Shown piece by piece: positions 5,170 to 59,415 of a stretch of 59,415 bases of DNA. The stretch comes from a virus (Duplodnaviria > Caudoviricetes), in the IMG/VR virus record IMGVR_UViG_3300020403_000009, positions 1 through 59,415 of that record; one strand, written 5' to 3'. The notes beneath the pieces are model-generated. The model made no database searches. It was not told the DNA's origin and saw nothing but the letters and a program-made list of their open reading frames with translations. The position numbers and the translations under genes are program-made. Every line of letters starts with the position of its first letter. Within the stretch, counting starts at the first letter, position 1.

Positions 5170-5580
5170 TTATAATATTTTTATCATTTCTTTGTTGTAG
5201 CTATCTCCTTGAATATATCCCAGCTCTTCATATGTTTTTATAAGACCATCGTGTTTTATAAGAGCGTATGTAAATTTATTTCCTGCGTTTTGTGCTACTC
5301 TAGTTAGAGCGTCAACCAACAAAGATAAAGCGGCTTTTCTGTTAGCCTTATTAGTATAATCTTTGTTAGATATAATCCAATCCACCCAAGCTACTTTTGA
5401 ATTTGTCATATATATAAATCCTGCACAAACAGGGGTTTTGTCATCATAAACAATTAAACCACCTTTACCTTCATCTGGCAAAAAATCTTTTACAGGAGCA
5501 TCCCATTTCCAATCTTTCCACCAACCTACTAAAATCTGCTCATAGTCAGACTCTTCAAGCGGTCTAATATTTAATTTCAT
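5170..5580 (-). CDS. GNAT-fold acetyltransferase-like protein
   Basis: IRPL..SDY start, VCAGFIY, WVDWIISN, YEELGY; typical position between nozzle and ejection genes. Confidence 0.65.
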   Translation of the reverse strand: MKLNIRPLEESDYEQILVGWWKDWKWDAPVKDFLPDEGKGGLIVYDDKTPVCAGFIYMTNSKVAWVDWIISNKDYTNKANRKAALSLLVDALTRVAQNAGNKFTYALIKHDGLIKTYEELGYIQGDSYNKEMIKIL

Positions 5581-5601: not shown

Positions 5602-7434
5602 TTACGGATAGCTTTTCATTACTTCCGACTCTACTGCGAATAACTCAGTAGCTGTACTATCTGTATTTGTAATTGTAAACTGGCAGTAATGACCTAACAC
5701 TCCGTTAGATTCTGCCTGCTGATTTTTAATATACATTATAAACCCGTCCTGGATTGGTATAGTTACTGCTCCTGTGATTGAATTATCTATAACTATATTG
5801 TTGGTTGCATTCTGTAAATCTATATTTATAGCAGTTACTTTTCCTGCCATCTCTATAGCATTATATGGAGGTGGAGCGTAATATACTATATCTCCTACAG
5901 CTATATCACTTCCAATCTCTAACACTGGATTAGTTGCAAAGTTTATTATAGTGCTTGTACCTACAATATTTACAGAAGAGCTTCTACCTATACCATTAGC
6001 CGAGCGTAAAGAATATTCATCAGAGCCTGCTGGCTGCGTTCCATTGTTTCTTATAAAAGCAAACCAAGCTCCTTCTTTCTTTTCAAACCAGGTGCTATCT
6101 ATGGTAGCTCCTGTCTGTATATCACTGTCTAATGTAACAGACCATGAGCTATCTGATTCTAGGTTTATGGTTTTAAACAATTTATTCTCTAGTGGTTGCT
6201 CATTAAATACACTTGTTACAGTAGAGTTGTGTTGTACATTATAAAAATTATTTCTAACCTCATTGGTATTGTGTCTGTATAAATTACCACCTTTAAAACT
6301 GTAAAAATAATTATTCATACCTATTGTCCAGTCTGGATGGTAAGAGTAGAATGAAGGCCATCCTTTTACACTGTCGCTATAAGTAAGAGTATATAGCAAT
6401 GTAGGGTCTCCTTGAGGAGGTATGATTGGAGGTTGTAGGTTAGGACAGGTAGCATTGTCAAACATCAAATTGTTCTGACCTCCCATATATCCATGGTTAT
6501 AACACTCATAACTTAGCGTTCCATAATTACCAGTAACTGTGATAGTTACATCTCCATAAAAATATTCATATACATTTCCGTCTAATCCCGTCTTAGTTCC
6601 TGAGCTGTACTGCCCATCATATTGTATCAAACTTGTTTTACCAAAGTTTTGGATGGCTATAGGATGCGCCGATGGGACACCAGTTAAAACAAATATACCA
6701 GTCCCTGTACCATATATACCATAATTACCGCCAAAGACAAATACATTTCCAGAACCAATAGATTGAATTGTTGTAGCATTCGTGCTGCTCAAACAATAAT
6801 CAGGAGTTACAGGAATCGGAGTGGGGGTTGGTGTGGGTGTAGGACTAGGACTAGGTGTCGGTGTCGGCGTGGGGGTGGGCGTAGGCACACCTCCGCATAT
6901 ATTTGTTCCACCACAGTCGTACTTATTAGTTACAGTTCCATCAGGCTCAATTAGCAATATTCCTGTTCCTGTTGCTGGCGATGAACCTGGGGTGGCTATA
7001 TAAAATTGATTACTACCATTAAATGGCGTATTAAGATTAGCGTCCAACCAAAAATGCTGTGTTCCACAAGTTACGCCACTATACGAGTTTACGTCAGAGT
7101 ATACTGTTACAGGACAGTTTACACAGGAGGTTGGCTTTACAAACGCACCATTTCCCTGTACTGCATTAAACTGCCAAGCGTATGAAGTAACTGGTGTAGG
7201 AGCAGGGGTAGGTGTATTACAAGATGTACACCCATTGATACCATAGTCTGCTGCTATAGTTATAAATTGTCCTGATGAGGCAACACCATATACTTTCCAA
7301 CAATTACCAACTCCTTGTCCAGGAGCAAGGCCATATATTTGGTAAGTATGGTTAATAGATTGTTGCGTGGTAAAAGACGCATCAGCAAAAACACTTGAAT
7401 TATCGCAGCTCTGTAGCCTATAGTAAAAAGACAT
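5602..7434 (-). CDS. Virion protein: Cys-rich modules, PT repeats, cupredoxin-like domain, and C-terminal part of the tail nozzle/stabilisation protein
   Basis: PT repeats; HP...YECYNHGYMG; C-terminal TLTYSDSVKGWPSFYSY...KLFKTINLE...FEKKEG...ELFAVESE segment. Confidence 0.7.
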   Translation of the reverse strand: MSFYYRLQSCDNSSVFADASFTTQQSINHTYQIYGLAPGQGVGNCWKVYGVASSGQFITIAADYGINGCTSCNTPTPAPTPVTSYAWQFNAVQGNGAFVKPTSCVNCPVTVYSDVNSYSGVTCGTQHFWLDANLNTPFNGSNQFYIATPGSSPATGTGILLIEPDGTVTNKYDCGGTNICGGVPTPTPTPTPTPSPSPTPTPTPTPIPVTPDYCLSSTNATTIQSIGSGNVFVFGGNYGIYGTGTGIFVLTGVPSAHPIAIQNFGKTSLIQYDGQYSSGTKTGLDGNVYEYFYGDVTITVTGNYGTLSYECYNHGYMGGQNNLMFDNATCPNLQPPIIPPQGDPTLLYTLTYSDSVKGWPSFYSYHPDWTIGMNNYFYSFKGGNLYRHNTNEVRNNFYNVQHNSTVTSVFNEQPLENKLFKTINLESDSSWSVTLDSDIQTGATIDSTWFEKKEGAWFAFIRNNGTQPAGSDEYSLRSANGIGRSSSVNIVGTSTIINFATNPVLEIGSDIAVGDIVYYAPPPYNAIEMAGKVTAINIDLQNATNNIVIDNSITGAVTIPIQDGFIMYIKNQQAESNGVLGHYCQFTITNTDSTATELFAVESEVMKSYP

Positions 7435-7456
7435 AGGTTCTTATTTAGTTACAAAT

Positions 7457-8326
7457 TTACGAATTAAATTGCTTTGTCTTTTTACAGGCATCACAATCAG
7501 CTTGTATCAAAGCGACCCAGTCTTTTATAGTTCTGTCTTTTTGTTTGTACTCTAAATCCTGTAGAAAATTCAAACGATATTCTATATCTCTAGGCTGAAA
7601 TAATTCCCTGTAAGTATCTGTAGTTATGTATTTATGCCACACTATATTTTGTGGTATCGCATATAAATCTAAACCATGTAGATATATAAGTAGCGAGTAT
7701 ATTTCTTGTTCTTGATTGTGTTTGAATGTATAATCATCTAATGTTATAGCTTCTGCCAATCTGTTATCTCCAAAAATATTACCTCCAGATATTTGATTTA
7801 CTCTTTCATAAGCCATCTTAGGATGTCTTTGACAATGTGGTTTGTTAAAAGCAGATGTCCAAGGAAGTTCGTGAGGCGTGTATATAGTGGCTATATTTCT
7901 TTTAGTATACTGCTCGTATGATTGATGAAAATCAAAAGATTGCGGAAACACGCTTATCACTGCATTTTCTGGAGCGTTTTTATATATATCTATATAAGTG
8001 GTATCCCAATTATTTAAAAACCTTGAGTGCGAATCAACACACATAAAATAATCCTGTCCTCCATATAGATGCTTTGATATTACATTTCTTGCCCATCCAC
8101 ATCCTTTAGCTTTATTAGCATCAATAGTTTGTAAGAACATATTGTTTCTGTAGGGATGTCCCTTCAATATACTTAGTACATCTATTGTTGCTTGAGGTGT
8201 ATCTTGTAAAAAAACGCCAACAAAAACTCTTTCTGGATGAGCGGCTCTTGTATATAAATCGTCTATGGTTGGTATTAAATCACTGTCCTTATACGATGCT
8301 ATATTAACAAATATACTTTCATTCAT
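7457..8326 (-). CDS. GT60-like glycosyltransferase (Skp1-hydroxyproline GlcNAc-transferase/Gnt1 family)
   Basis: IFVNIASYKD, T...LY.RA.HPERVFVGV..Q, AKGCGWAR, YFMCVDSHSRF..WD and late WH motifs. Start probably 8326, overlapping the upstream stop. Confidence 0.8.
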   Translation of the reverse strand: MNESIFVNIASYKDSDLIPTIDDLYTRAAHPERVFVGVFLQDTPQATIDVLSILKGHPYRNNMFLQTIDANKAKGCGWARNVISKHLYGGQDYFMCVDSHSRFLNNWDTTYIDIYKNAPENAVISVFPQSFDFHQSYEQYTKRNIATIYTPHELPWTSAFNKPHCQRHPKMAYERVNQISGGNIFGDNRLAEAITLDDYTFKHNQEQEIYSLLIYLHGLDLYAIPQNIVWHKYITTDTYRELFQPRDIEYRLNFLQDLEYKQKDRTIKDWVALIQADCDACKKTKQFNS

Positions 8327-9227
8327 GATTAAAAATTGCAACTGAACAAGATGTACATATTTCTCCAAAAGCTTTTTGCATAACTTCTTGTCGCTTTTGT
8401 CCTGTCCAGATTTCTTTTAAAGTTTGTTTATTTAAATCTCCAAATACATAGTCCATATTGTAATCATTGCAACATAAAAAGACTTCACCTTTTGGTGTAA
8501 CATGAAGCCACTCTGTATCTCTCTTAGAAGAACATCCTACAACCTTACCTTCAGGCAAAGGATTCTCCATAACATCTTGCAATAATCCAGCCCTGTCAAT
8601 AAGATTCCATTGAGTCGTAACGCTTATACCTGGAAATAATTGCTTTGCTATTCTAGTTTGCGTTTCAAGTTCGTTCGGTTGCAGCTCTGGAAAATCTTTT
8701 AACTTGATAATATTAGACCTGTTATCAATACCATTAATTTGCAACAACAATATATTTTTATTTAATAGATTGTTTTGAGCATAATAAATGTTAGTAATTA
8801 ATGTTTCAAATAACTTCTCACGCATACCTGTTCTTTTTTCAAACAACTCTCTTTGGTATACTGGTGCGTTGATTGCTATTTGAGAAACCACTCCAGGATA
8901 TTTATTTATAAGGTCTATTTTATTTGGTGTGAGTGGGACACCATTAGTGAGTAAGCATAATGTAAGATTATGTTTTTGTAGCGTTTGCAACATTTGCTCA
9001 AAATATCTATACAATAAGACTTCGTTATAATGTGAAGCATATACAAAATGCAGTCTTGGACTTACAAGCTCGCCTTTTAAATCTACTATTTGTTTTATAA
9101 TAGATTCGTATAGCTCTGGTGGCATTTGGTTTTTATGTTCGCTTGGATTACCATGAATCGAAACTGGGCAGAACCAACATCCAGCATTGCATAATCCATT
9201 AGGGTCTATTTGTATAAAATTTATCAC
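8319..9227 (-). CDS. Radical SAM enzyme with SPASM/twitch domain
   Basis: CNAGCWFC (CxxxCxxC), LLTNG, and C-terminal C...G.VFLCC.D...GDL....L.EIW...CTSC. Confidence 0.9.
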   Translation of the reverse strand: MINFIQIDPNGLCNAGCWFCPVSIHGNPSEHKNQMPPELYESIIKQIVDLKGELVSPRLHFVYASHYNEVLLYRYFEQMLQTLQKHNLTLCLLTNGVPLTPNKIDLINKYPGVVSQIAINAPVYQRELFEKRTGMREKLFETLITNIYYAQNNLLNKNILLLQINGIDNRSNIIKLKDFPELQPNELETQTRIAKQLFPGISVTTQWNLIDRAGLLQDVMENPLPEGKVVGCSSKRDTEWLHVTPKGEVFLCCNDYNMDYVFGDLNKQTLKEIWTGQKRQEVMQKAFGEICTSCSVAIFNHE

Positions 9228-10366
9228 TTTATTTTATAGTGCATAAAAAAGTTTCTATAGTATGTTCCTTGAAAAGGTTCTGTTCTTCCGTGTTGGCACA
9301 AGGCAGATTCATAAAGTATCATATCTCCAGGCTCTGCATAAACCTTATACCACTCTCCATCATGTCCTTGAATATCTAAAGGCCAATCGTCTCCAAACTC
9401 TCGGCTTTGACATCCACACTTTAAATCTTTATCCACTATAATTATAGATGAAACATGATGAGTTTCTATTCTGTCTGTATGTTTTGAAAGGGTTGCTCCC
9501 CTTAAATACGACCTTATACCATACACGAATGTAGGCTCTATATCAACTCCTGCGAACTCTCGGTGTATCGGCAAAAGTTGATTGTGTATCATACTCCTTA
9601 TATGTGGTATATTGTCATACGACATTAATTGACTACCTCCTTGTATAAATGTTTCTTTGCCTGGAAAGTCTTCTTCTACAGTTCGGTCTTTTAATATATG
9701 GTATGAATCCTGAATAATACCCCATATATGCTCTGGTACTTTTACTACATCGAAACCAATATCAGTAAGCTTAGGTATATTAGGAACTACTTTGAGCGGA
9801 GCAGGTTTAGCCGCTCCCCATTCTCGCTCTCTCCACCACGATGTAATAATATATTTCTTGCCTGACGTTACTGGCATACCCTCGTGTATAGTGTCCTCTT
9901 GAGTTTGGCCATCTATCATGTTTTCCCAAGTTACAGCCTTCCCTGTCTCTGGCTGAGTTATGGTATTAAGCTTTGGAAAGTTAGTTCCACCACCCTCAAA
10001 GTCATCATTCAAATAAATCATCAAGGTGTGCGTTCTGTTTCCGCTATGCAAACAATGCTCATTATAAGCAGGACCGCTAAAAAAATCGTGATGAGGTTTA
10101 AAGTATTGACCTACTTCATAGAGCTGACCTTGAATGTTTTCACCTCTCTTTTCATCCAAACCTAGATGGTTTGCTATTTTTAAAAAAACACTTTTTACTA
10201 AGGGGTCGGTGTGACTTAAATTACAAGTGCTTGACGTTCGGCTTTTGTCATCTATAGAAGTTCCTCCAGAACCTGAAACCACTGTAGAAGGCTGGTGGTT
10301 TTTATCTATAATTTTAATTAATTCACTACACTCTTCTTGAGTGAGAAAATTCTGTATTTCAACCAT
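9224..10366 (-). CDS. Tandem 2OG-Fe(II) dioxygenase; N-terminal prolyl-4-hydroxylase-like domain plus a second 2OG domain
   Basis: Domain 1: NFLT.EEC, RTS, Y..GQYFKPHHD, R..T.MIYLND..EGGGT.FP, HEG.PV.SG.K. Domain 2: YGIRSY..GA.L..HTD...PGDMILYES...HGR. Confidence 0.9.
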   Translation of the reverse strand: MVEIQNFLTQEECSELIKIIDKNHQPSTVVSGSGGTSIDDKSRTSSTCNLSHTDPLVKSVFLKIANHLGLDEKRGENIQGQLYEVGQYFKPHHDFFSGPAYNEHCLHSGNRTHTLMIYLNDDFEGGGTNFPKLNTITQPETGKAVTWENMIDGQTQEDTIHEGMPVTSGKKYIITSWWREREWGAAKPAPLKVVPNIPKLTDIGFDVVKVPEHIWGIIQDSYHILKDRTVEEDFPGKETFIQGGSQLMSYDNIPHIRSMIHNQLLPIHREFAGVDIEPTFVYGIRSYLRGATLSKHTDRIETHHVSSIIIVDKDLKCGCQSREFGDDWPLDIQGHDGEWYKVYAEPGDMILYESALCQHGRTEPFQGTYYRNFFMHYKIK

Positions 10367-10393
10367 TAAATTTAATTTGTATAAAGATACAAA

Positions 10394-11203
10394 TTAATAG
10401 CAACTTCCTGACAAAGTGAAACTTGAGCCGTTCCAATATCTATATGAACCGCCTTGCGTGTAATACCCTGGAGTAGCATATGTGCTACATCCACTATTAG
10501 CAAAAGCAATTGTAGCTGTACTTAAAGAAGAGGTGTCAAAGAAATGAGAATCATAATTTCCTGAGCAAACAGCACTGCCTCTTTGTAAGTAAATAGCATA
10601 ACAAGTAGGACTTGGAGTAGGTGTCGGACTAGGACTAGGCGTTGGACTAGGAGTAGGACTAGGCGTTCCCGCACAAGCTGTACAGTTTGAATAGTATCCT
10701 TGAGGAGATATAGCCTGTGGCGTTCCTGTATTTGGACCATATACTTCCCAACATTGACCCGCATATTCTACAGAAGTTCCATAGCTTACTTGTTGTGGTA
10801 ATGAAACATTGTATTGCTGTCCAGTTGAACATTGTTGTAATAAATAGTCATAGGTCGGAGCTGGTGTAGGCGTTGGACTAGGACTTGGGCTTGGCGTTGG
10901 ACTAGGTGTAGGACCTGGTGTAGGGCTTGGAGTTGGACTAGGACTAGGTGTAGGTGTAGGGCTAGGGCTAGGACTAGGAGTTGGGCTAGGTGTGGGCGTA
11001 GGAGTTGGAGTCGGTGTTGGAGTAGGAGTAGGTACAGTACAACCTTGAGACGCTAATAATACACCTGAAACCTGCTGTCTAACTATAGACGAATCTGAAT
11101 ACCATCCATTAGCTGATACTGTAGTTAAATTTGCATCGTCATAAACAGTTGTTGCGTTTGCAAAACTTGCAGTATCAAAATAATATGTTCCTAGTGTTGC
11201 CAT
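10394..11203 (-). CDS. Pro-Thr/Pro-Ser repeat, Cys-rich virion accessory protein
   Basis: Three small beta/Cys modules separated by long (PT/PS)n linkers. Confidence 0.75.
10856..11036 (-). repeat. Hexamer repeat encoding (Pro-Thr/Pro-Ser)n
   Basis: Direct reading. Further tracts at about 10604-10667, 6800-6890, 7188-7215 and 12941-12980. Confidence 0.95.
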
Positions 11204-11206
11204 TTT

Positions 11207-14200
11207 TTAACAATTTATAATTTGACTTGGCGCTCCTGTTGAAGAATTAAATCTTAACGCTACCCCACTTCCAGTTCCACAAGAAGCACCTTGATAATAC
11301 CACTTGCTACTTATAGAGTATTGCAGGTAGTCTATAACTTTTGTTTTCTTAGCCTTATCCATCCACACGACATCTGATGTAGTTACGCAAGTTGTGCTGC
11401 CATCATGATAATAGTTTTGAGTGGTTGCAGTAGGACCATTATTACACGCATCTGTATTAGTAGAGAACCAACTTTCAACTTCATTCATTGTAAACTCTTG
11501 AACACATAGTGAATAGTAAGAGCTGCCTTGAGCGTTTACAAGTCCACTCGCTCCAATATAAAGGTTTACACCTGGTGTTACGCTATTTGTCTGAGCAGCA
11601 CCATAGTATAATGGAAGACCCGTGCCTGAATCGCTTCCATCAAATGTGGTTGTTAATCCAATATCTGTATAAGCGATGACAGTATATCCGTTAGTGTAAG
11701 CAAAATCTAACTGCTCTGTATTTTGAATAAAGATATTTCCTCCGCCAGGATTATATATTAAGTAAACTGATATAGCGCTACTGACAGTGTATGTACAAGA
11801 AGTGCTTGTGCTTGATTCTCCTGATTGTTGTCCATTATTTAAGTACCAAGCCTGTGGTGTTGAACAAGCTCCGTCTTGAGTTACTGCGCCATTTGTATTA
11901 GTGGTAAGGTAATTCCCATAAGTTGTACCACACGGAGAATAGTAGTTACTATAAGCACCAGCATAAAGAGGTGTAAGTAAATCTACATCGGTAAATATGT
12001 TATCAGAAGTTGAAGCTTGCGCACAAGCAGTTGAGCCAGTATGGTAATATGTCGTAGTGGGTTTTCCAGGACCCCAAGCACAAACACTTCCCAAAGGTGC
12101 GTAGTTATCTGAAGTTATTTCTATTGCAGTTATACAAGAATCAAATAAATCGCTTCCAGTTGTAGTAACGAGCGTACCTGTCTGAGAAACATTTATTGTC
12201 ATACCTGTATCTACTGTACCTGCGCCGCCGCCAGAAGCTCTAATTCCAACCCATGGGGCTAAGCTGCTATTTGGTATGAATGCTGTAGTTCCTCCTGCAT
12301 CTGTCCAAGCATTTACTGTTCTTCCAGCTGTTGCTGCATCTCTAAGGTCTTGAGCTGTGGATATAGCACCAGTACTATCACTTAAATATAAAGTTCCTGT
12401 TGAAGGTATTTGAATATTTTGAGCGCATGAGTTAGAGCTTGAAGAATAACCATTTCCATACACCGCCATATTAGTTAACCATGCTCCAGTAGGAGTAGGA
12501 GTAGGTGTTGGAGTTGGAGTAGGAGTAGGAGTAGGCGTAGGCGTAGGCGTAGGCGTAGGCGTAGGTGTTGGAGTCGGAGTCGGAGTAGGTGTTGGAGTCG
12601 GAGTAGGAGTCGGTGTAGGAGTCGGTGTAGGACTAGGACTTGGTGTTGGTGTAATATTACACACACCAGCAGTATCAATATTAGAAACTGTACCTATATC
12701 CGTCATTCTAAATATTCCTTCACTAAGACCATACCCTTTATTAGGTTCTCTTACACCAAAGTAGTTGTCTCCTCCTTGGAATAATGTTGTTAAAGATGCG
12801 TCTGTATAAAACAATGTGCTACCAGTTGCAGTTGTAGCAAATGAACTGGATGCACTATAAATAGGTGTAGATGCAAATGGGCAAGTAGATGGACTTGTTG
12901 CGCTACCAGTACCAGGCTCAATCAACCATCTGTAAGATACAGGTGCTGGTGTCGGAGTTGGAGTTGGTGTCGGTGTTGGGAATGTGCAACCAGTACAAGC
13001 ATCTGATGTGCTGGTAGTAGAAAAACATAAGTTTGCACTAGATGGTTTTCTGTAATCCCATATTAAATACAAGAAACGCCCCCCTGCTGGCAACGTAAAG
13101 CTACCGCTAAATTGATTTGGATTGGTTTCACTTACAACTGTGGTATTGGCTGCTGCTGCCAACAAACTATTTATATCACTTCCATTATTACCGTAAAAAG
13201 TGTTTGTTCTTAAATATTTTAATTTATTTTTAGAGATATCAAAAACAAAATTGTCAAAATTTTGTTTTCTACTTATTATTGACACTATAGATGCATCTCC
13301 AGGTATAACTCCTGCGCCTTGGAATCCAGCTACAAAATTGTACTGAGATACTATTGGGTTTGTATTGCTTGAAGAAAACTGTATTCTTTCTGAATGCAGC
13401 GGAGATGTAAATGTTCCGTCAGTCCATCTGTACTGATTAGTAATAAACTGTCCAGCATCTGAATTACTTGTAACAGCTACATTATAAATTGTTATTTCTT
13501 GTGCCTGTGGGCATCCAGTTGTTATATCAATGGTATCTGAAGTAGTGCTATCTTGAGTAACACTAATTTCAACTGTAGTGGTATTAACACTGTTTTTGTT
13601 AAATGTCAAAGTGCCGCTCTGATTTACTGGGCCAGTGCTATGAGACACCCCGTTATATGTTGCTGTTATAGTGTAATTAGTTGTACTTGTTTGCGCTTCA
13701 AGAACCATTTCATCTGATAATGCTTCTGTTACAACATTTGAATTTGTTTCGGAAACTATATTAGTAAAACCACCATCAAAAGGTATTTCATAATCAATAT
13801 CAACCAGTCCTAATAAGTCACCAACATCTACACAATATGTAAATGTTGTATTAGGCTCTATTACGATGTTTTTTGCTGTATCACAAGGTAAACATTCATC
13901 GTCTGCTGGAGGTAATTGTACATTTGAATGCAACACATACTCATTCATGTATGGGTCAAACCCTCCTAGCTTTTGTGTTTGGAAAGTATCTATAAATAAA
14001 TCTCTAAACCACGAGCGCATACCTGCTTCTGATATAACTTGAAGCTGCTCGTTATTATACGCACCTCCAATTAGATTTATTACCGCTCCACGCTTGGCAT
14101 CAGTAAAATATTTATTAGGCCCATAGGATGCATAACTCTCTGGGTTTTCACTAATACCATATTCTTCTAATCTAGCTATCTGTGTTCCTAACACTTCTGG

Positions 14201-17200
14201 CACAGACGTTACTGCACCTCCTCCAGTAGCATCACTTAGTAAATTTTTACCTGCTAAAACATAAGATATTTTATCTTCTTGCAGGGTAAGAATATCTGTT
14301 TTTCTACCATCTAATAACTGTACAGGCCCATAAGACTCTTCTAATGGTTTAAAATTAGCTAGTCCTAGGTTGAACTCATTTAATTTATTTACGTTCGTTT
14401 CATCGTTATATACACCACTATAAGTCAAATCAGCAAATCTATGTTCCTGCTTATAGTCCATATTAGATGTAGATGTAACACGCTCTCCAAGATTTAATGT
14501 TTTGCCTGTTATAGAGTCTAACATCTTGTAGCTTTCTACACCATTTCCAAAAGTGTAACAGTTCGAAAACTCTGTATCAATAATTGCTGATTGACCAGAG
14601 GTTTGATTTTGCACATTACCACTATGCATACCATCTGTATCAACAGGAAAAGATAAATGGTTTTCATACCAAACATTTGATAAAGCATCAGTAGGCTGTG
14701 TTTCAAAAACAATTAAACTATCTGCTCTATAAATTTGTATATCAGCTGTTACTGTTGAACGTCTTTTTGCTCTTGATAATGTACCACTGCAACGAACCGT
14801 TCCAGTAATAAGTAAAGATAATTCTCCATCTCCACCAGCTGGAGCTGGTTCTCTATAAAACTTATAATAGTTAGTTCCCTCAGAAGTTGATATGTCTGTT
14901 TTTGTTGTAGCAGTCGCTGACTCATATGTATTCGTAATGCTTCCAGTATTACCTCCAACCTCAGTAACCGCTCGGTTTAAAACCTCCTCTACATTATCTC
15001 CATTCCACCAGTCCTGCATATTATTGTAAGTTCTAGAAGATATAAGTTCAACATCTAATTGACTTATTCTTCTTTCACATTTTCCGTTTCCTTGCCCTGG
15101 CCCTAATCTTTCTTGCCTTATTGACATTATAATCCTACTTCCAGAAGGAACATCATAATCTAAAAACTGACCAGGATTTGCTGGGTCAGCTAAATTCATA
15201 GGATATGCAAGAATAGGGTAATCGTTAGCAGTGTCTTGAATATCAGTTAATGAACCAGGTGTAACAATGTCATTATCTCCTCTTTCTGTAGCGAAATTAT
15301 TAGGATTAATTTTCATATATGTTCCAGCAGGCGATGTAATAGAAGCTCCTTGAGAATCAGTTAAAAAATCTGCTGACTTAGCCTCTTTTTCTAAAACTGT
15401 GGCCTCAACACACCTTAAAACTGGACCTGAACTGTCAGACTTCACAAAGTATCTATCTCCCTCCTCTACTTTATTTGCATTCTCTCCTTCTAATAAAAAG
15501 TAAGTAGCATTGCTACCTGGGTCTTTAAAATATATGTTTGAATAAATAGTATCATATGTAGACTCATATGGTTTTAATACAAATTTATACCTTGTTGCCC
15601 AACTTGGAGCTAACTGCTGAGTTGGAACAATTACTCTTATTTCATTTTTATTAATAGAGTTTTGACATGGTATCTCTACAGTATTATTTGGACTGACAAG
15701 AGCGGTAGATGAGCGTCCAAAACTATCCATATATACTATACCCACCTCATATCCTCTATTGCTATGTAAACTTCTTGGATTGTCAAGATTACTAAAAGAA
15801 GCAGTAGCTGTTATTATTTCATAAAATTCATAAGCATTATTAGCTCCATCTACATACTGCATAGCAGTAAGCTGAAGCCCAATAGTATTACTTGCTGGAG
15901 ATGCTATAATTTCAATAGGCTCTGCTGTTGCAGTAATACCGCTTGCAGTTTTTGTGTATGTTCCTAATGTAGAAGGAAGCGCACAATTAATACGGTCTGT
16001 TAATGTTGTTCCATTACAAGCATCAACAACAGGTTGTATATTTGATGCAGTACCAACCTTTTCAATAAAATCTGTGCTTGTAGCTAATGAATATACATTA
16101 TTAAAATCTACTGGTAATACATATTCAAACAATATATCAGTTGATGAGGTTGTGGCCGATGGAGTATTATCAGTAAACTGGCTATGAGTAATAGTAAAAT
16201 CTAAAGAAATAGTTGAGCCAGCAGTAAGTTCTAAAGTTGTTCCATTTTGATTTGATAAATCAAAGTATATAATAGAGTTGTTTACATTCACTGGCGTTGG
16301 ACCTATAGTATAGTATCCTGCTCCTCTAGTATCCACAAGCTCAGAAGTAGCAATTTCTGTGCTATTTAAATCTGCTTCAAACTCTAATTTTATATCATTA
16401 CCAAACTTATCTTTTAAATCATAGCCCTCTTTGTAGTTTCCATAAACAACTCTATTACCCATTACAGTTTGAGCTTTAGCTATAATAGGAACATTGTCAT
16501 ACAATCTTAGCAGTTCTGAGTCTGGTAATAAAGTAAATATCTTACTGTTATCAAACGTATAAGTATAATCTGTATCATTAGAGTATCCTAAATTGGATTT
16601 ATCTAAATACTCTATGACTTTAATATTGTTTGTGGTAGATTCTTTGAAAAGCAACTGAATACCCTCTACGAGCGAACCTCCTGAATTAAAAGTTATAATC
16701 GCCGCATTCTTAGTATTCCTCATTCCTTCATTCAAATAGCTATTATAGCTAAATGAAAAAGTTGAAGGATTAAAAGCATATTGACTAAACTGAGAAGTAG
16801 CTGAGTATTGATTGTCTGCATACTTATATCTATATGCAAAAGCAATAAAACGCTCCTCTAAGTAATCATCTTCTTGACCTACTACATTAAAAGTTTGAAT
16901 ACTTGGAGCGGATACTGGTGGCCTTTTTATTACCATCAATGATTCCGCCGTAAAACCATCAAGATTGTTAGTAGGAGATGAATATCTTCTATTTACATTT
17001 ATTACTCTTGGTGGATTAAGATTATCCGTAAAAAATAAAAGAGAGTTATCAATAAGATTAACTCCAGTAATTAAGTGATATGGGCTAAAGTTTAAAGTAG
17101 TATTTATACCACCTCCGTCATCAAGACTTATTATATGATATGTAGTCGAGTTGTCAGTAGTATTATAAGAAACAATTAAATCAAGCTTACTTGTGTTTCC

Positions 17201-17482
17201 TAAAGTAAAAGCTGGGTCGTGTATAAACCAATAAATAGTTTCATTAGCACCATCTTCATAAGCACCTATACATCTAGCGTTATTACTAAGCTCAACCCCG
17301 TCAAACATAATAGTTGTTAGCCCAGTATTACCTTTTGAGTTTTCTACCGAACCATATTCAGATTCCTCGGTAGAACCAAGTCTTACATTTAATGCGTCAA
17401 TATATTCACCATTTGGTAAAAGCCTTTCATCAAGGCTTTTATTCATACGGCCTCTTATAAAATTTCTTTGAATATTTGCCAT
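11207..17482 (-). CDS. Tail nozzle/stabilisation protein (N-terminal major part) with PT-repeat and repeated beta-module extension
   Basis: [22 protein letters not shown] start, [35 protein letters not shown] motifs of crAss-like stabilisation proteins; follows the ring genes. Confidence 0.75.
12488..12652 (-). repeat. Hexamer tandem repeat encoding (Pro-Thr)n
   Basis: GTAGGA/GTAGGC/GTCGGA/GTTGGA units; synonymous variation between units indicates selection on the protein. Confidence 0.95.
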
Positions 17483-56139: not shown

Positions 56140-59100
56140 TTAATCTGGAGGAGGACCCTGTGTTTTTTTATCTCTTGGTCTATATGATTTGCTAATACCT
56201 ATAAAGTCATATATTTCTCCTTCATCAGCTTCCATGTCTTTAAATAAATTTATAACACCTACAGCTGGGTCTGTTTGGACTCCCAAAACTCCATCTATAA
56301 CTCCTTTAATAGCACTAAAATAAGTAGGTTCTTTTATAAACCTGTTTAATTTAAACCAAAAAGCATTAAATGGATTAACAATCGGACTAGATGTTGTTAC
56401 TCTTTTTCTTAGCCCTAAACCAACTTCAGCTCTTTGTACCACTTGTTCTGCCGCAACACCAAATAAAGGAATTTGATACAATAAGTTTAGTCCAATAGCA
56501 GCCTCTGCAATAGCTAAATAAACCTCTTTTCTATCTTCATCATCTCCTGCCCACAGCCTTGCAATATTTGATGTTGCAACAAATAATGCATTAGCAATAG
56601 AAAGGTTTAGAGCTAAATCTCTAATATCTCTGGTTGGGGGCATTTTGCCTTTTAATAAATGTTTGGCAAAAATATTTCTTTGAGCCATAGCTACCCTATT
56701 CATTTGTAAAAATAAGGTGCTTCCAAAAGATGTAAACACTCTGTTATATCCTTTTGCTCTTTGAATAGGACTTTTTTCTGTATTTCTTCTACTTTGTTGA
56801 GTTGCATTATAATTATTAAAAGCCTTCAATGCTTCTGCTTGACTCATTCCGTTTTTAATATTTCTATTATAGTTTGCCACATAACCCATAACTCCCAACA
56901 CATCTCCTAAAACTGTTGGAGAAGCCGCAGCTTTTCTAAAATTTCTTCTTAGCCTAGTGGCTTTAGCGCTTGTCTCTGGAAGATATTGAAATAATCCACC
57001 AGATTCTAAAGAGTGAATATCTCCCTCCAATCCTTTTTCTAATCTTTCTCTAAAAGTTGCGGACACTTCTTTCATTTTCTTCAAATTACTTCTGAAATTA
57101 GCTAGAACTAGAGCGTATTCTGCCAAGAAGCTAAGCGTGTCTATTACTGGAGTATATTTTCCAGGTCTAAATTGATGCTCATTAAAAGCGTTGACAAAAG
57201 ATGTCATTTGCTTAGGTATTTGTATAAATTTAAAAGATAAAGCATACGATGTAAACCAACTAAAAATTTTACGAGTGCTGTCTTTGATTTCATTTCTTAG
57301 ACCGTATGTAGGATTTATTTCAAAATTAATACTAGACCTGATTAAATTATCTATATCTAAAACATTTTTATCTAATAATGTTTTAACAGCCTCTGTATTA
57401 AAAATAGTATTAAGCTCCCTAGTTCCAGACGCATATGCTTTATATCTTTCCATAGAATTTATATAGTTTTCTAAAGTGTATGAAAATCCAAATTCTAAAT
57501 CTAATGGTAAATCTTTTGCTGTTCTTTCTTTAAGAGCAGATGCATTTTCTAAACCTAAAACTTTATTAAAGTCTCCATCTAGAAGACTAACCTGGTCTGC
57601 ATCAGATATACTTGCTGTAGGAAAATAGTTTTCTATGTAACCTAAGTTAGCATCATTTACATCTGAATAGATATCATTTAATCCTTCAAAGTAATCATTA
57701 CTCAAGTAATCTACTATTCTATCTGTAAAAGAAACAAGCTCTGGACCGAGAATATCTTTTATTTCTTTTATGTTTTTTATACCTTCTTTTTCTAAACGCT
57801 TCTTTTGTACGTCATTAAGACTTAAAGCATACATTCTCATTATTTGGTCTGCGGTGTACTCTACTTTTTTGTTTCCTTCAGTAATTTCTACGATTCCAAT
57901 TGTCTGTAGTTTTTTTAATATACCCGAATATCCTCCTTCTATTCCCTCAACACTATCAGCTATAGAATCTATAATTTTTTGCTGATAAAATTTTCCTTTC
58001 AAAGAGTTCTCGCTCATGATATTTAACCTGTCATAAACCTGTTCTTGAAAAAATCCAGTTAAAGAGTAATTATCTAAAATTCTTGTTAAAGAACCGAGAT
58101 GAGCTATTTTAGTTCTAAAAAAAGCAGATATATTTTTACCTACTGTAAAATCATAATATTTATATAAATTTTTTAACCCTTGCCATATCTTTAATTTAGC
58201 AAAGCTCTTGTTAATTTCTTTTATATCCGCTCGAATCTCTTTAATACTTTTTAAAACTTTTTTCCCATTTTTATCTGTTTTAAAAAGGATTCCAAAATCT
58301 TTTTCTATTTGTGAAGTTACTTGCTCTTGTAGTCTAGCATCTTTTTCAGCTTTTCTAATTCTTTTTTCCTTTACAACCTTCCTTGATGATTCAGCACCTG
58401 ATTGTAAATCTTCAAATAAATCCTGCACTTCCTCTAGTGATTTGTCTTTAATGTCTGCAAACATTTCAAAAGCAATAGACTTGTCTAAATATTTAGACTC
58501 TTTTACAGTAAGCTTTTCTCCTCTAGCCTCTTTAGCAATAATTTCATTGTATCTTTCAATGTCTGAAAGTTCATTTGCTATAACAGCCATTCTGTTTATA
58601 GCATTAGACCCTAATGCAGCTTTTAGTATTTGATTTAGTTGAGAAAAAAATTGTTGCCCTTGAGCATCAAGTCCTTTTGATTTTCTTTTTTTTGAGCCTC
58701 TAGGTATTACTTTAGCTTTTGAAGATACAAATTTTTGAAGCTTACTTATTAACGAGTTCTTCTTTCTTTCTCTTGCAGTTTCTACTTTTTTAATAACTCT
58801 TTCAATTGCTGCTGGTAAATCGTTTATTGATTTAACATCAGTAACTATGCTTATTGCATTTGCAATATCTGTTTCAGAATACCCTTGAGATTTAGGCATA
58901 ACTGTGCGAATGAAATTTTTAAGCTCAATCTGTGCGCTTCTTAAATCCTTCACCCCTTTTTTAAAACCTTTTACTAAGTTTTTAACACGAGTTATCTCAC
59001 GCTGTATTGTTTTATTAGCTCTGCTGCCTACAAATTTATCAATAGCTAGAATTAATTCGTTCTGCTGGTTTTCTGGTAGGTTTTTATATTCTTCAGTATT

Positions 59101-59415
59101 TTGTAAAATATCTAAAGCCTTAGCCCTTACCTCAGCATTACTAGGTTTTTCTTTTGTTTTTCTATTTGGAGTGTTTTTAAACCTGTTGATTTTGGAGCGT
59201 AGACTCCTAAAGAACTGTAACCCGTCTGGTATTGTTCTAAACACTGCGGGTAATGTTTCTCCTTTTTTCAGCGCTTCCTCCAAGGCTGTATTAATATCAG
59301 AGGCTTTGAATCCACGACCTATTAATACTGCTTTGATAGCTGTATCAGAAAAACCTTGCGCTCTTCCTTGCTCTACTACACCTTCGATTGTTATAGCTTC
59401 TCCTTCTATTGGAGC
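56140..59415 (-). CDS. Giant virion protein, C-terminal part (5' truncated by the window)
   Basis: The frame of the 1047-aa ORF stays open to 59415 (APIEGEAITIEG...); ENYFP motif and amphipathic C-terminus. Confidence 0.8.
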   Translation of the reverse strand, partial: APIEGEAITIEGVVEQGRAQGFSDTAIKAVLIGRGFKASDINTALEEALKKGETLPAVFRTIPDGLQFFRSLRSKINRFKNTPNRKTKEKPSNAEVRAKALDILQNTEEYKNLPENQQNELILAIDKFVGSRANKTIQREITRVKNLVKGFKKGVKDLRSAQIELKNFIRTVMPKSQGYSETDIANAISIVTDVKSINDLPAAIERVIKKVETARERKKNSLISKLQKFVSSKAKVIPRGSKKRKSKGLDAQGQQFFSQLNQILKAALGSNAINRMAVIANELSDIERYNEIIAKEARGEKLTVKESKYLDKSIAFEMFADIKDKSLEEVQDLFEDLQSGAESSRKVVKEKRIRKAEKDARLQEQVTSQIEKDFGILFKTDKNGKKVLKSIKEIRADIKEINKSFAKLKIWQGLKNLYKYYDFTVGKNISAFFRTKIAHLGSLTRILDNYSLTGFFQEQVYDRLNIMSENSLKGKFYQQKIIDSIADSVEGIEGGYSGILKKLQTIGIVEITEGNKKVEYTADQIMRMYALSLNDVQKKRLEKEGIKNIKEIKDILGPELVSFTDRIVDYLSNDYFEGLNDIYSDVNDANLGYIENYFPTASISDADQVSLLDGDFNKVLGLENASALKERTAKDLPLDLEFGFSYTLENYINSMERYKAYASGTRELNTIFNTEAVKTLLDKNVLDIDNLIRSSINFEINPTYGLRNEIKDSTRKIFSWFTSYALSFKFIQIPKQMTSFVNAFNEHQFRPGKYTPVIDTLSFLAEYALVLANFRSNLKKMKEVSATFRERLEKGLEGDIHSLESGGLFQYLPETSAKATRLRRNFRKAAASPTVLGDVLGVMGYVANYNRNIKNGMSQAEALKAFNNYNATQQSRRNTEKSPIQRAKGYNRVFTSFGSTLFLQMNRVAMAQRNIFAKHLLKGKMPPTRDIRDLALNLSIANALFVATSNIARLWAGDDEDRKEVYLAIAEAAIGLNLLYQIPLFGVAAEQVVQRAEVGLGLRKRVTTSSPIVNPFNAFWFKLNRFIKEPTYFSAIKGVIDGVLGVQTDPAVGVINLFKDMEADEGEIYDFIGISKSYRPRDKKTQGPPPD

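Follow-up and report, generated by a model that had tools for sequence, protein, structure and literature searches.

A tail nozzle encoded in two genes, with predicted protein-modifying enzymes at the junction, in an uncultured podophage

Two open reading frames (ORFs) of the virus record IMGVR_UViG_3300020403_000009 are predicted to form two parts of one tail nozzle (muzzle) fold, a conclusion that is well supported in silico. The record, an IMG/VR entry, was analyzed over its whole length of 59,415 bases (the window). With a completeness estimate of 98%, it represents almost the entire genome of an uncultured podophage, a relative of Cellulophaga and Flavobacterium phages. The ORFs are referred to as the N-half and the C-half. 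It is probable that the observations as a whole are best explained by a nozzle built from two gene products, the split of which is old, by a junction between the genes that was colonised, and by linkers at the junction that are hydroxylated and glycosylated. The original prediction described an island of approximately 7.5 kb between the sequence motifs at which the two parts meet. This spacing is correct, but much of it consists of the halves' own extensions: approximately 2.7 kb is the in-frame extension of the N-half and approximately 1.0 kb is the extension of the C-half (residues 1–345), and only the remaining stretch, 7457–11203, is made up of four genes. The two halves comprise the following parts:

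11207..17482, minus strand: nozzle/muzzle N-half gene, 2091 residues; phrog_14478 virion structural protein, E-value 8.9e-235
13928–17482, minus strand: N-half core, residues 1–1185
13931–13972, minus strand: N-side motif of 14 residues (1171–1184), the last core strand of the N-half, placed by sequence and co-fold
11210–13927, minus strand: C-terminal extension of the N-half, residues 1186–2091, in frame
12938–12979 (residues 1502–1515) and 12488–12649 (residues 1611–1665), minus strand: two Pro-Thr linkers flanking a 95-residue Cys-containing module
5602..7434, minus strand: nozzle/muzzle C-half gene, 610 residues; PF25729 crAss_MUZ_C
6400–7434, minus strand: N-terminal extension of the C-half, residues 1–345, with modules and two linkers (residues 74–82 and 183–206)
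6340–6390, minus strand: C-side motif TLTYSDSVKGWPSFYSY, residues 349–365, the first core strand of the C-half, placed by sequence and co-fold
5602–6399, minus strand: C-half core (C-core), residues 346–610

The C-half matches PF25729 with a score of 66 bits (cut-off 27) over residues 393–464, and no Pfam domain was detected in the N-half. The AlphaFold model of the C-half has a mean predicted local distance difference test score (pLDDT) of 70, with block means of 85–97 across residues 351–610. A Foldseek search with this model ranked 7QOK and 7QOL first (E-value 3.4e-5), and residues 342–607 could be superimposed onto residues 1180–1371 of the muzzle protein gp44 of phage crAss001 (7QOL_P) with a Z-score of 11.5 and a root-mean-square deviation (rmsd) of 2.5 over 156 residues (VIA-align). 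The next structural matches are the C-terminal parts of the nozzles of T7, Carin-1, and HRP29, with Z-scores of 6–7 (6.1 for T7 gp12 residues 499–790). Furthermore, a profile of 112 relatives of the C-half matches residues 1199–1283 of gp44 with an E-value of 2.4e-8. The model of N-half residues 1–1190 has a mean pLDDT of 72 and could be superimposed onto residues 53–1216 of gp44 (7QOL_P) with a Z-score of 16.0 and an rmsd of 5.4 over 510 residues. It is also similar to the nozzles of SU10, P22, and T7, with Z-scores of 12–13 (12.2 for the T7 nozzle 8e4g_P). The two ORFs therefore cover consecutive parts of the one-piece, 1371-residue muzzle. Single-sequence phmmer against the PDB gave only low-complexity Pro-Thr matches for the N-half and none for the C-half, and the N-half family profile matched no PDB chain and gave only weak collinear matches to gp44. 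The C-core contains an extra beta-barrel (residues ~466–571, window 5719–6036) that does not align with gp44, and the best matches of which are generic barrels (Gar1 domain, ATPase N-terminal barrels; Z-scores 7–8).

According to the sections of the crAss001 paper that describe gp44, the protein is composed of a ring-joining domain and a seven-bladed propeller, into which two immunoglobulin-like domains and a large 'crass' domain are inserted, and the part after residue ~1021 is the remainder of the propeller (PMC10172136). Therefore, the cut in the window protein is located inside the propeller. The N-half would account for the part that joins the ring, the large inserted domains, and the greater share of the beta-propeller, and the C-half would supply the last part of the propeller, equivalent to ~190 residues, shutting it against the N terminus.

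The association of the halves was modeled as a co-fold of three chains, N-half residues 1–360, N-half residues 955–1190, and C-half residues 342–610, in three runs. The interaction prediction score from aligned errors (ipSAE) is 0.87 (0.86–0.88 in individual runs), and the controls reached 0.00, 0.00, and 0.64; the mark used for this score is attained by 116 of 157 solved complexes and by two of 215 mismatched pairs. The contacts agree between runs to at least 93%, and the pLDDT of the partners is at least 78. Residues 1181–1185 of the N-half pair with residues 349–352 of the C-half with an expected error of 0.4–0.6 Å, which makes the two motifs neighbouring strands in the model. In addition, residues 28–32, 53–56, and 71 close to the N terminus contact residues 362–363, 380, 385–386, and 405–407 of the C-half, so that the C-core closes the ring of the propeller and the C-half segment completes the modeled fold. 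Several points weigh against this reading. The pLDDT of the N-core model is below 50 at residues 1–53 and 1167–1190, residues 1–208 of the C-half extension have no confident fold, and the control that retained the true second chain still scored 0.64. The high score of the co-fold may also stem from the likeness of the halves to the solved one-piece crAss001 muzzle, and the co-fold indicates likeness, not binding. The pair shares the fold and PF25729 with the nozzle family and differs from it in not being a single polypeptide, so the two proteins jointly constitute a family member.

Both motifs are positioned where the original prediction had put them, and its statement that they lie close together in single-chain homologues is borne out. 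The break corresponds to a short hairpin loop in the uninterrupted proteins. As counted by eye on printed junction stretches, the motifs are separated by 5–30 residues in seven of seven one-piece homologues: 5 in P0271, 6 in phi38:1 gp097, 8 in P0264 and in P0270, 20 in P0266, which is a fragment, 21 in elemo gp22, and 30 in the 1899-residue ORF of L045 (P numbers denote homologous proteins and L numbers viral contig loci). The N-side motif could not be placed in crAss001 gp44 (E-value 4.4). In the 1324-residue phi38:1 gp097, residues 723–1073 align with residues 815–1185 of the N-half, and residues 1077–1323 align with residues 347–610 of the C-half. The corresponding strands are much farther apart in the window, where 907 residues of extension on the N-half, four genes, and 348 residues of extension on the C-half come between them.

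A search with the C-core using HMMER identified 2,528 representatives with E-values of at most 0.001. The best 150 of these are mostly stand-alone proteins of 240–300 residues, and three are fused proteins of 1316–1512 residues. Among 159 classified C-core proteins, 103 are bare, 50 carry an N-terminal extension (including P0266, which is actually a fragment of a fused protein), and six are fused. This excess of stand-alone C-halves could be taken to mean that the 610-residue ORF encodes an independent tail protein or, in a weaker form, that the fused relatives are secondary fusions; the lack of resolution in the basal branches of the tree, together with the scattered fused forms, leaves the number and direction of splits and fusions unfixed. 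We nevertheless regard both forms of this explanation as very improbable. The solved outgroups, crAss001 gp44, T7 gp12, and the nozzles of other podophages, are single chains that the two ORFs cover one after the other. On its own, the N-half is missing the final portion of the propeller, the model made of it by itself leaves its last 24 residues without structure, and the propeller is closed in the co-fold.

The fused state is taken as ancestral since the solved nozzles that were matched are single polypeptides. In a FastTree phylogeny of 150 C-cores rooted on gp44, the enzyme-bearing loci with extended C-halves that were found with the C-core query fall into a single 32-row clade (support 99) embedded in bare forms, which indicates that the split came first and that the junction was colonised later. 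The fused forms belong to a poorly resolved group of 14 rows, in which they are mixed with bare forms, and the tree therefore does not fix the number of split and fusion events. Halves that directly adjoin each other, with no enzyme genes, are found in phi13:2 (where gp120 and gp121 are each annotated as structural), in L037–L041, in L044, and for most of the 103 bare C-halves. The idea that the island itself split the gene, as the original prediction had it, was rejected: split halves with no island are the commonest state, many relatives have only a fibre-like gene at the junction, and the split is older than the enzymes. At the same time, homologues are not always pairs of genes without an island, as both one-piece homologues and enzyme-bearing loci were found.

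The four genes between the halves in the window are:

10394..11203, minus strand: 269-residue protein with a conserved N-terminal domain of ~55 residues, long Pro-Thr/Pro-Ser linkers, and Cys-rich modules
9224..10366, minus strand: double Fe(II)/2-oxoglutarate (2OG) oxygenase, 380 residues; PF13640, 59.9 bits (cut-off 27)
8319..9227, minus strand: radical S-adenosylmethionine (SAM) enzyme with a SPASM/twitch domain, 302 residues; PF04055, 44.5 bits, and PF13186, 49.3 bits
7457..8368, minus strand: glycosyltransferase of the family 60 (GT60) type, 303 residues from a TTG start codon; PF11397, 124.1 bits (cut-off 21)

The content of the junction was compared in 98 loci, namely the window, four GenBank records, 42 viral contigs found with the C-core query (the first set), and 51 found with the P0131 query (the second set); both halves are visible in 84 of them. 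The junction is variable, ranging from empty to a fibre-like gene to enzyme cassettes. In the 33 enzyme-free loci, the halves are fused, adjacent, or separated by a single gene, the first ~55 residues of which match the 269-residue protein. The double oxygenase with a prolyl 4-hydroxylase (P4H) domain is present in 21 loci. Its partners are the radical SAM enzyme and a short GT60 in the window, L005, L012, and L015, which are all of the loci where the radical SAM gene occurs and in each of which it adjoins the GT60 gene. Elsewhere, the oxygenase is accompanied by a 206–207-residue DXD glycosyltransferase (PF04488), by an uncharacterised protein of 276–281 residues, or by a protein of the hydroxyproline-O-arabinosyltransferase family PF23452, which occurs either with DegT and GNAT proteins or with a 220-residue ORF; L085 and L088 have no partner enzyme. 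A long GT60 (403–410 residues) is encoded without P4H in 26 loci, some of which add a large GT32-type protein or an FkbM methyltransferase. The remaining four loci contain only the C domain of the oxygenase, with a protein of the O-fucosyltransferase (O-FucT) family, a carbamoyltransferase, and an uncharacterised 180-residue protein. Thus, as had been claimed, the genes between the halves include families of protein-modifying enzymes: PF23452, O-FucT (PF10250), GT60, and GT32 are protein-O-glycosylation families, and the carbamoyltransferase, DegT aminotransferase, GNAT, and FkbM methyltransferase are sugar-tailoring enzymes.

Two pairs of loci, L011 with L012 and L014 with L015, have DNA identity of 77–96% up to the stop codon of the hydroxylase. 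In both pairs, homology resumes ~30 nucleotides upstream of the start of the C-half, and the intervening stretch is unrelated. Near-identical relatives exchange a defined slot, from the end of the hydroxylase to the C-half, for other cassettes. The junction is an insertion hotspot, the usual content of which is a fibre-like gene and, in two clades, also protein-glycosylation enzymes.

The N domain of the oxygenase is a predicted collagen-type P4H. It matches the P4H of Bacillus anthracis (PDB: 5IAX) with an E-value of 4.6e-25, as well as human C-P4H alpha-2 and the P4Hs of Chlamydomonas and PBCV-1. His92, Asp94, and His161 are invariant in all 21 sequences that contain this domain, and Lys171, the 2OG-binding lysine, is present in 22 of 24 aligned rows when all oxygenase rows are counted. 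The C domain contains a second HxD...H...R motif, the residues of which (His296, Asp298, His359, and Arg361) are invariant in 24 of 24 rows. In the ESM Atlas, the C domain matches unnamed viral clusters of 185–217 residues only, and the nearest named clusters are 2OG oxygenases (0.88–0.91), which is a lead only. This second domain (residues ~190–380, window 9224–9800) also occurs as a free-standing protein of ~199 residues in relatives that lack P4H (L008:5276–5875), where it adjoins the genes of the O-FucT-family protein and carbamoyltransferase.

The radical SAM enzyme exceeds the cut-offs of both PF04055 and PF13186 and contains the CX3CX2C motif as CNAGCWFC near its N terminus. Its best solved relative is BtrN (PDB: 4M7S; E-value 1e-9), and only sub-threshold matches were found in NCBIfam. 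The GT60 matches PF11397 in two stretches that span profile positions 97–277 of 352. Its translation is likely to start from the ATG at 8326, which gives an overlap of 8 nucleotides with the stop of the radical SAM gene; the orthologues in L012 and L015 have 291 residues and overlap with the radical SAM gene by 8 and 14 nucleotides. The window GT60 is ~100 residues shorter than those of the second clade and has no match in the PDB. It contains the sequence CVDSHSRF, which may correspond to the catalytic DxD/DxH metal motif of related transferases. We take PF11397 to be the family described as Skp1 hydroxyproline N-acetylglucosamine (GlcNAc) transferases. In the CAZy classification, GT60 includes mucin-type Thr/Ser GlcNAc transferases of protists. 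NCBIfam gave no matches for the oxygenase, the GT60, or three uncharacterised ORFs from the slot of relatives.

Each half bears modules on Pro-Thr linkers at the break, as originally noted. Beyond the second linker of the N-half, there are four further modules, extending down to window position 11210. The first part of the N-half extension, residues 1185–1500, is common to MW202828 and phi13:2 gp120, and the ESM Atlas gave no usable match for residues 1186–1500. The content of cysteine is 2.3% in the N-half extension versus 0.7% in the core, and 2.3–3.5% in the extensions overall versus 0.4–0.7% in the cores. Of the seven Pro-X runs in any frame of the window, six are located in the three genes on either side of the enzymes (N-half, 269-residue protein, and C-half); the seventh is the eight-residue PQPQPGPG at the end of a 607-residue ORF. 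The 269-residue protein probably has a fibre-like or decorating role. Most split relatives encode its N-terminal domain between the halves, among them the enzyme-free MW202828 and, of the 51 second-set loci, 20 that are likewise enzyme-free (L075–L084, L086, and L090–L098).

A module signature (aromatic, D/N, L-T-T, G, aromatics) is present in the modules of all three linker-bearing proteins (window 11210–12950, 10394–11203, and 6400–7434). Six copies were located with a loose regular expression, the signature also starts the N-terminal domain of the 269-residue family, and no Pfam family matches it. In 11 loci of the GT60-only clade (L064–L074) and in L021, the C-half extension and the C-core are encoded in two separate ORFs (for example L064:8986–9510 and 9555–10376, or L021:9050–10036 and 10067–10792), the first of which stops inside or just past the Pro/Thr linker. 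Since several contigs show this separation, a second genuine split or a site of recoding may lie behind it, rather than a sequencing error. The GC skew is positive (+0.02 to +0.07), with a GC content of 0.38–0.40, at window positions 6001–8000 and 10001–14000, and is otherwise −0.1 to −0.25 in the surrounding late block. The shift coincides with the coding of linkers and modules and is thus probably a codon-composition effect of sequence rich in Pro, Thr, Ser, and Gly.

Linkers were counted in 12-residue windows with at least four prolines and at least nine Pro, Thr, and Ser residues in total, and near-identical loci were kept in the counts. This definition replaced a stricter one, of at least four consecutive Pro-X dipeptides, which failed to pick up irregular Pro/Thr linkers in the GT60-only clade. 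At least 20 linker residues are present in 51 of 51 enzyme loci versus none of the 33 enzyme-free loci (84 loci in total). The 21 P4H loci have at least 74 linker residues, the 26 GT60-only loci at least 20, and the four others 29–119, and 31 of the 33 enzyme-free loci have none, with a maximum of 14.

From the enzyme families and their position, it is most likely that the enzyme operon hydroxylates and O-glycosylates the linkers of both halves and of the 269-residue protein. The cut lies in a hairpin loop of the one-piece forms, so that two free chain ends exit from the same point of the fold, in a loop that is presumably exposed on the outer surface of the nozzle. Each free end would carry small Cys-rich modules on Pro-Thr/Pro-Ser linkers. 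After an old split that is now common in this phage group, the junction would have become a site of gene insertion, first of the gene for a fibre-like protein whose N-terminal domain is conserved and later, in some clades, of genes for modification enzymes. The P4H domain would hydroxylate linker prolines while the virion proteins are made in the host cytoplasm, and the GT60 would attach a sugar, probably an N-acetylhexosamine, to Thr/Ser or hydroxyproline of the linkers. The outcome would be a mucin- or extensin-like coat on the strings at the tail tip, which could stiffen the linkers, shield them from proteases, or tune adhesion. Exchange of the sugar cassette in the slot between the hydroxylase and the C-half would vary the glycan. 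It is possible, and we propose it tentatively, that the cut hairpin serves as a display socket, at the extreme tip of the tail, for strings of lectin-like modules on mucin/extensin-like linkers O-glycosylated at hydroxyproline and Thr, with the slot giving rise to glycan 'serotypes' that differ between close relatives.

The proposed action of the enzymes on the linkers draws on the names of the families and on a co-occurrence that could be explained by one or two events. In a C-core tree of 82 loci, the enzymes and the linkers require no more than two changes each, which provides one independent contrast on well-supported branches and two on all branches; a contrast test of enzymes versus linkers has no power at this number, and the pattern of 51 versus 0 is thus not statistical support. 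P4H and GT60 are also not an obligate pair, since GT60 is found without P4H in 26 loci and accompanies it in four of the 21 P4H loci. A scan for promoters and terminators, with 55 and 7 sites versus 55.8 and 7.6 in shuffled sequences, was uninformative on the transcription units. The split nozzle could be real and the linkers plain spacers, in which case the enzymes would be auxiliary genes with other targets: the host envelope or capsule, different proteins, small molecules, or DNA. Oxygenases of the 2OG type in phages are commonly classified as auxiliary metabolic genes, phrog_61 ('moron, auxiliary metabolic gene') is the top PHROG match of the window oxygenase, and BtrN acts on an aminocyclitol, not a protein. 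We consider this explanation unlikely. The families in the slot, collagen-type P4H, hydroxyproline O-arabinosyltransferase, GT60, and protein O-FucT, are typed by protein acceptors, the enzymes are encoded within a late structural operon between the halves of a virion protein, in frames that overlap or nearly abut, and no enzyme-free locus has 20 or more linker residues.

Bases 1–39,400 of the window form a single minus-strand block of late genes (terminase, portal, structural proteins). The six genes from the N-half through to the C-half are all in one direction, with intergenic gaps of −50 to +27 nucleotides. No Rfam family matched the window at gathering thresholds, and there is thus no sign of an intron or ribozyme able to rejoin the halves. 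The window is a single metagenome-derived virus record, so that a chimeric assembly or a pseudogene in decay could be invoked for the split or the island. This is extremely improbable. The gene order is repeated in the independent viral contig L005, with protein identities of 93–97%, which speaks against an assembly artefact, dozens of independent contigs have a comparable layout, every ORF is intact, and the catalytic residues are conserved. The nearest named relatives are the uncultured podovirus MW202828 and podophages of Cellulophaga, Flavobacterium, Tenacibaculum, and Maribacter. The 610-residue protein matched 87 phage records in a tblastn search, none with 80% query coverage, and among the matches listed the alignment is limited to the last ~265–270 residues. 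A 136-residue gene (window 5170–5580, phrog_17252) follows the C-half directly, and almost every relative has it at this place, whether the nozzle is split or fused (elemo, phi13:2, MW202828). Both ends of the record cut large ORFs (window 56140–59415 and 3–2522), and at the matching position MW202828 has an 11.6-kb gene annotated as 'reticulocyte binding/rhoptry protein'.

The two-gene nozzle resembles crAss001 gp44 and T7-type nozzles in the order of the fold and in the C-terminal propeller part with crAss_MUZ_C, as far as the muzzle is described for 7QOK and 7QOL (Nature 2023; PMC10172136). It differs from gp44, a single chain of 1371 residues, in being cut near gp44 residues ~1180–1199, in the hundreds of residues added at the cut ends, and in the C-core barrel. 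A split nozzle has also been solved, as described in passages of a recent paper (PLoS Biol 2026), in Pseudomonas podophage A1002, where gp39 ('nozzle-rope') and gp42 ('nozzle-base') jointly rebuild the canonical nozzle propeller, one half has a long extension, and the fibre proteins gp40 and gp41, numbered between the halves, bind that extension (PMC13730344). A1002 belongs to another phage group, and its cut is located in the fibre-dock region with the gene of the C-terminal part first; these passages mention no Pro-Thr linkers or enzymes between the halves (PMC13730344). By analogy, the 269-residue family, conserved between the halves, is a candidate counterpart of the A1002 inter-half fibres. 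Closer to the window, phi13:2 (gp120 and gp121) and MW202828 have the identical cut position and products annotated as structural (GenBank), and MW202828 has one small gene between the halves, the N terminus of which matches the 269-residue protein. Unlike the window, both lack the enzymes, the Pro-rich linkers, and the N-terminal extension of the C-half.

The window shares enzyme families with the glycosylation of hydroxyproline in eukaryotes and giant viruses (collagen-type P4H and GT60, and hydroxyproline O-arabinosyltransferase in relatives), and its enzymes adjoin Pro-rich, repetitive, acceptor-like sequence. In the Skp1 pathway, the hydroxylase PhyA acts first and is followed by the GT60 enzyme Gnt1; protists have mucin-type GlcNAc transferases of GT60, and plants O-arabinosylate hydroxyproline. 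The window differs from these systems in belonging to a bacterial virus with no Skp1-like target and in its radical SAM partner, which has no known counterpart in those pathways, and the 26 loci with GT60 but no P4H do not support a strict order of hydroxylase and then GT60. Glycosylation of mycobacteriophage virions was reportedly described by Freeman et al. in 2023. In mycobacteriophages, glycosyltransferase genes adjoin structural genes and are thought to modify the phages' own virion proteins. The transferase families and hosts are different, and no hydroxylase, linker-strung modules, or location at the nozzle is known for that system. No paper on a phage prolyl hydroxylase tied to tail or fibre glycosylation was among those listed by the literature searches. 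What is new is that the enzymes lie where the two parts of a split propeller meet, in a defined slot with exchangeable content, and that a broad range of acceptor-typed families occurs in it.

If this explanation is true, a conserved tail beta-propeller tolerates a cut in a single loop and is restored by two separate gene products, which would free two chain ends for modular display at the end of the virion that contacts the host. Bacteroidota phages would join mycobacteriophages as glycosylators of their own virions, using enzyme families otherwise known from the biology of collagen, plant cell walls, and protist mucins and swapping them as cassettes between near-identical phages. It would also bear on the roles of the widespread phage genes annotated as '2OG-Fe(II) oxygenase' and GT60. 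Should the reading of the cut hairpin as a display socket hold as well, a bacterial virus would have built a eukaryote-style hydroxyproline-rich glycoprotein system for its own virion.

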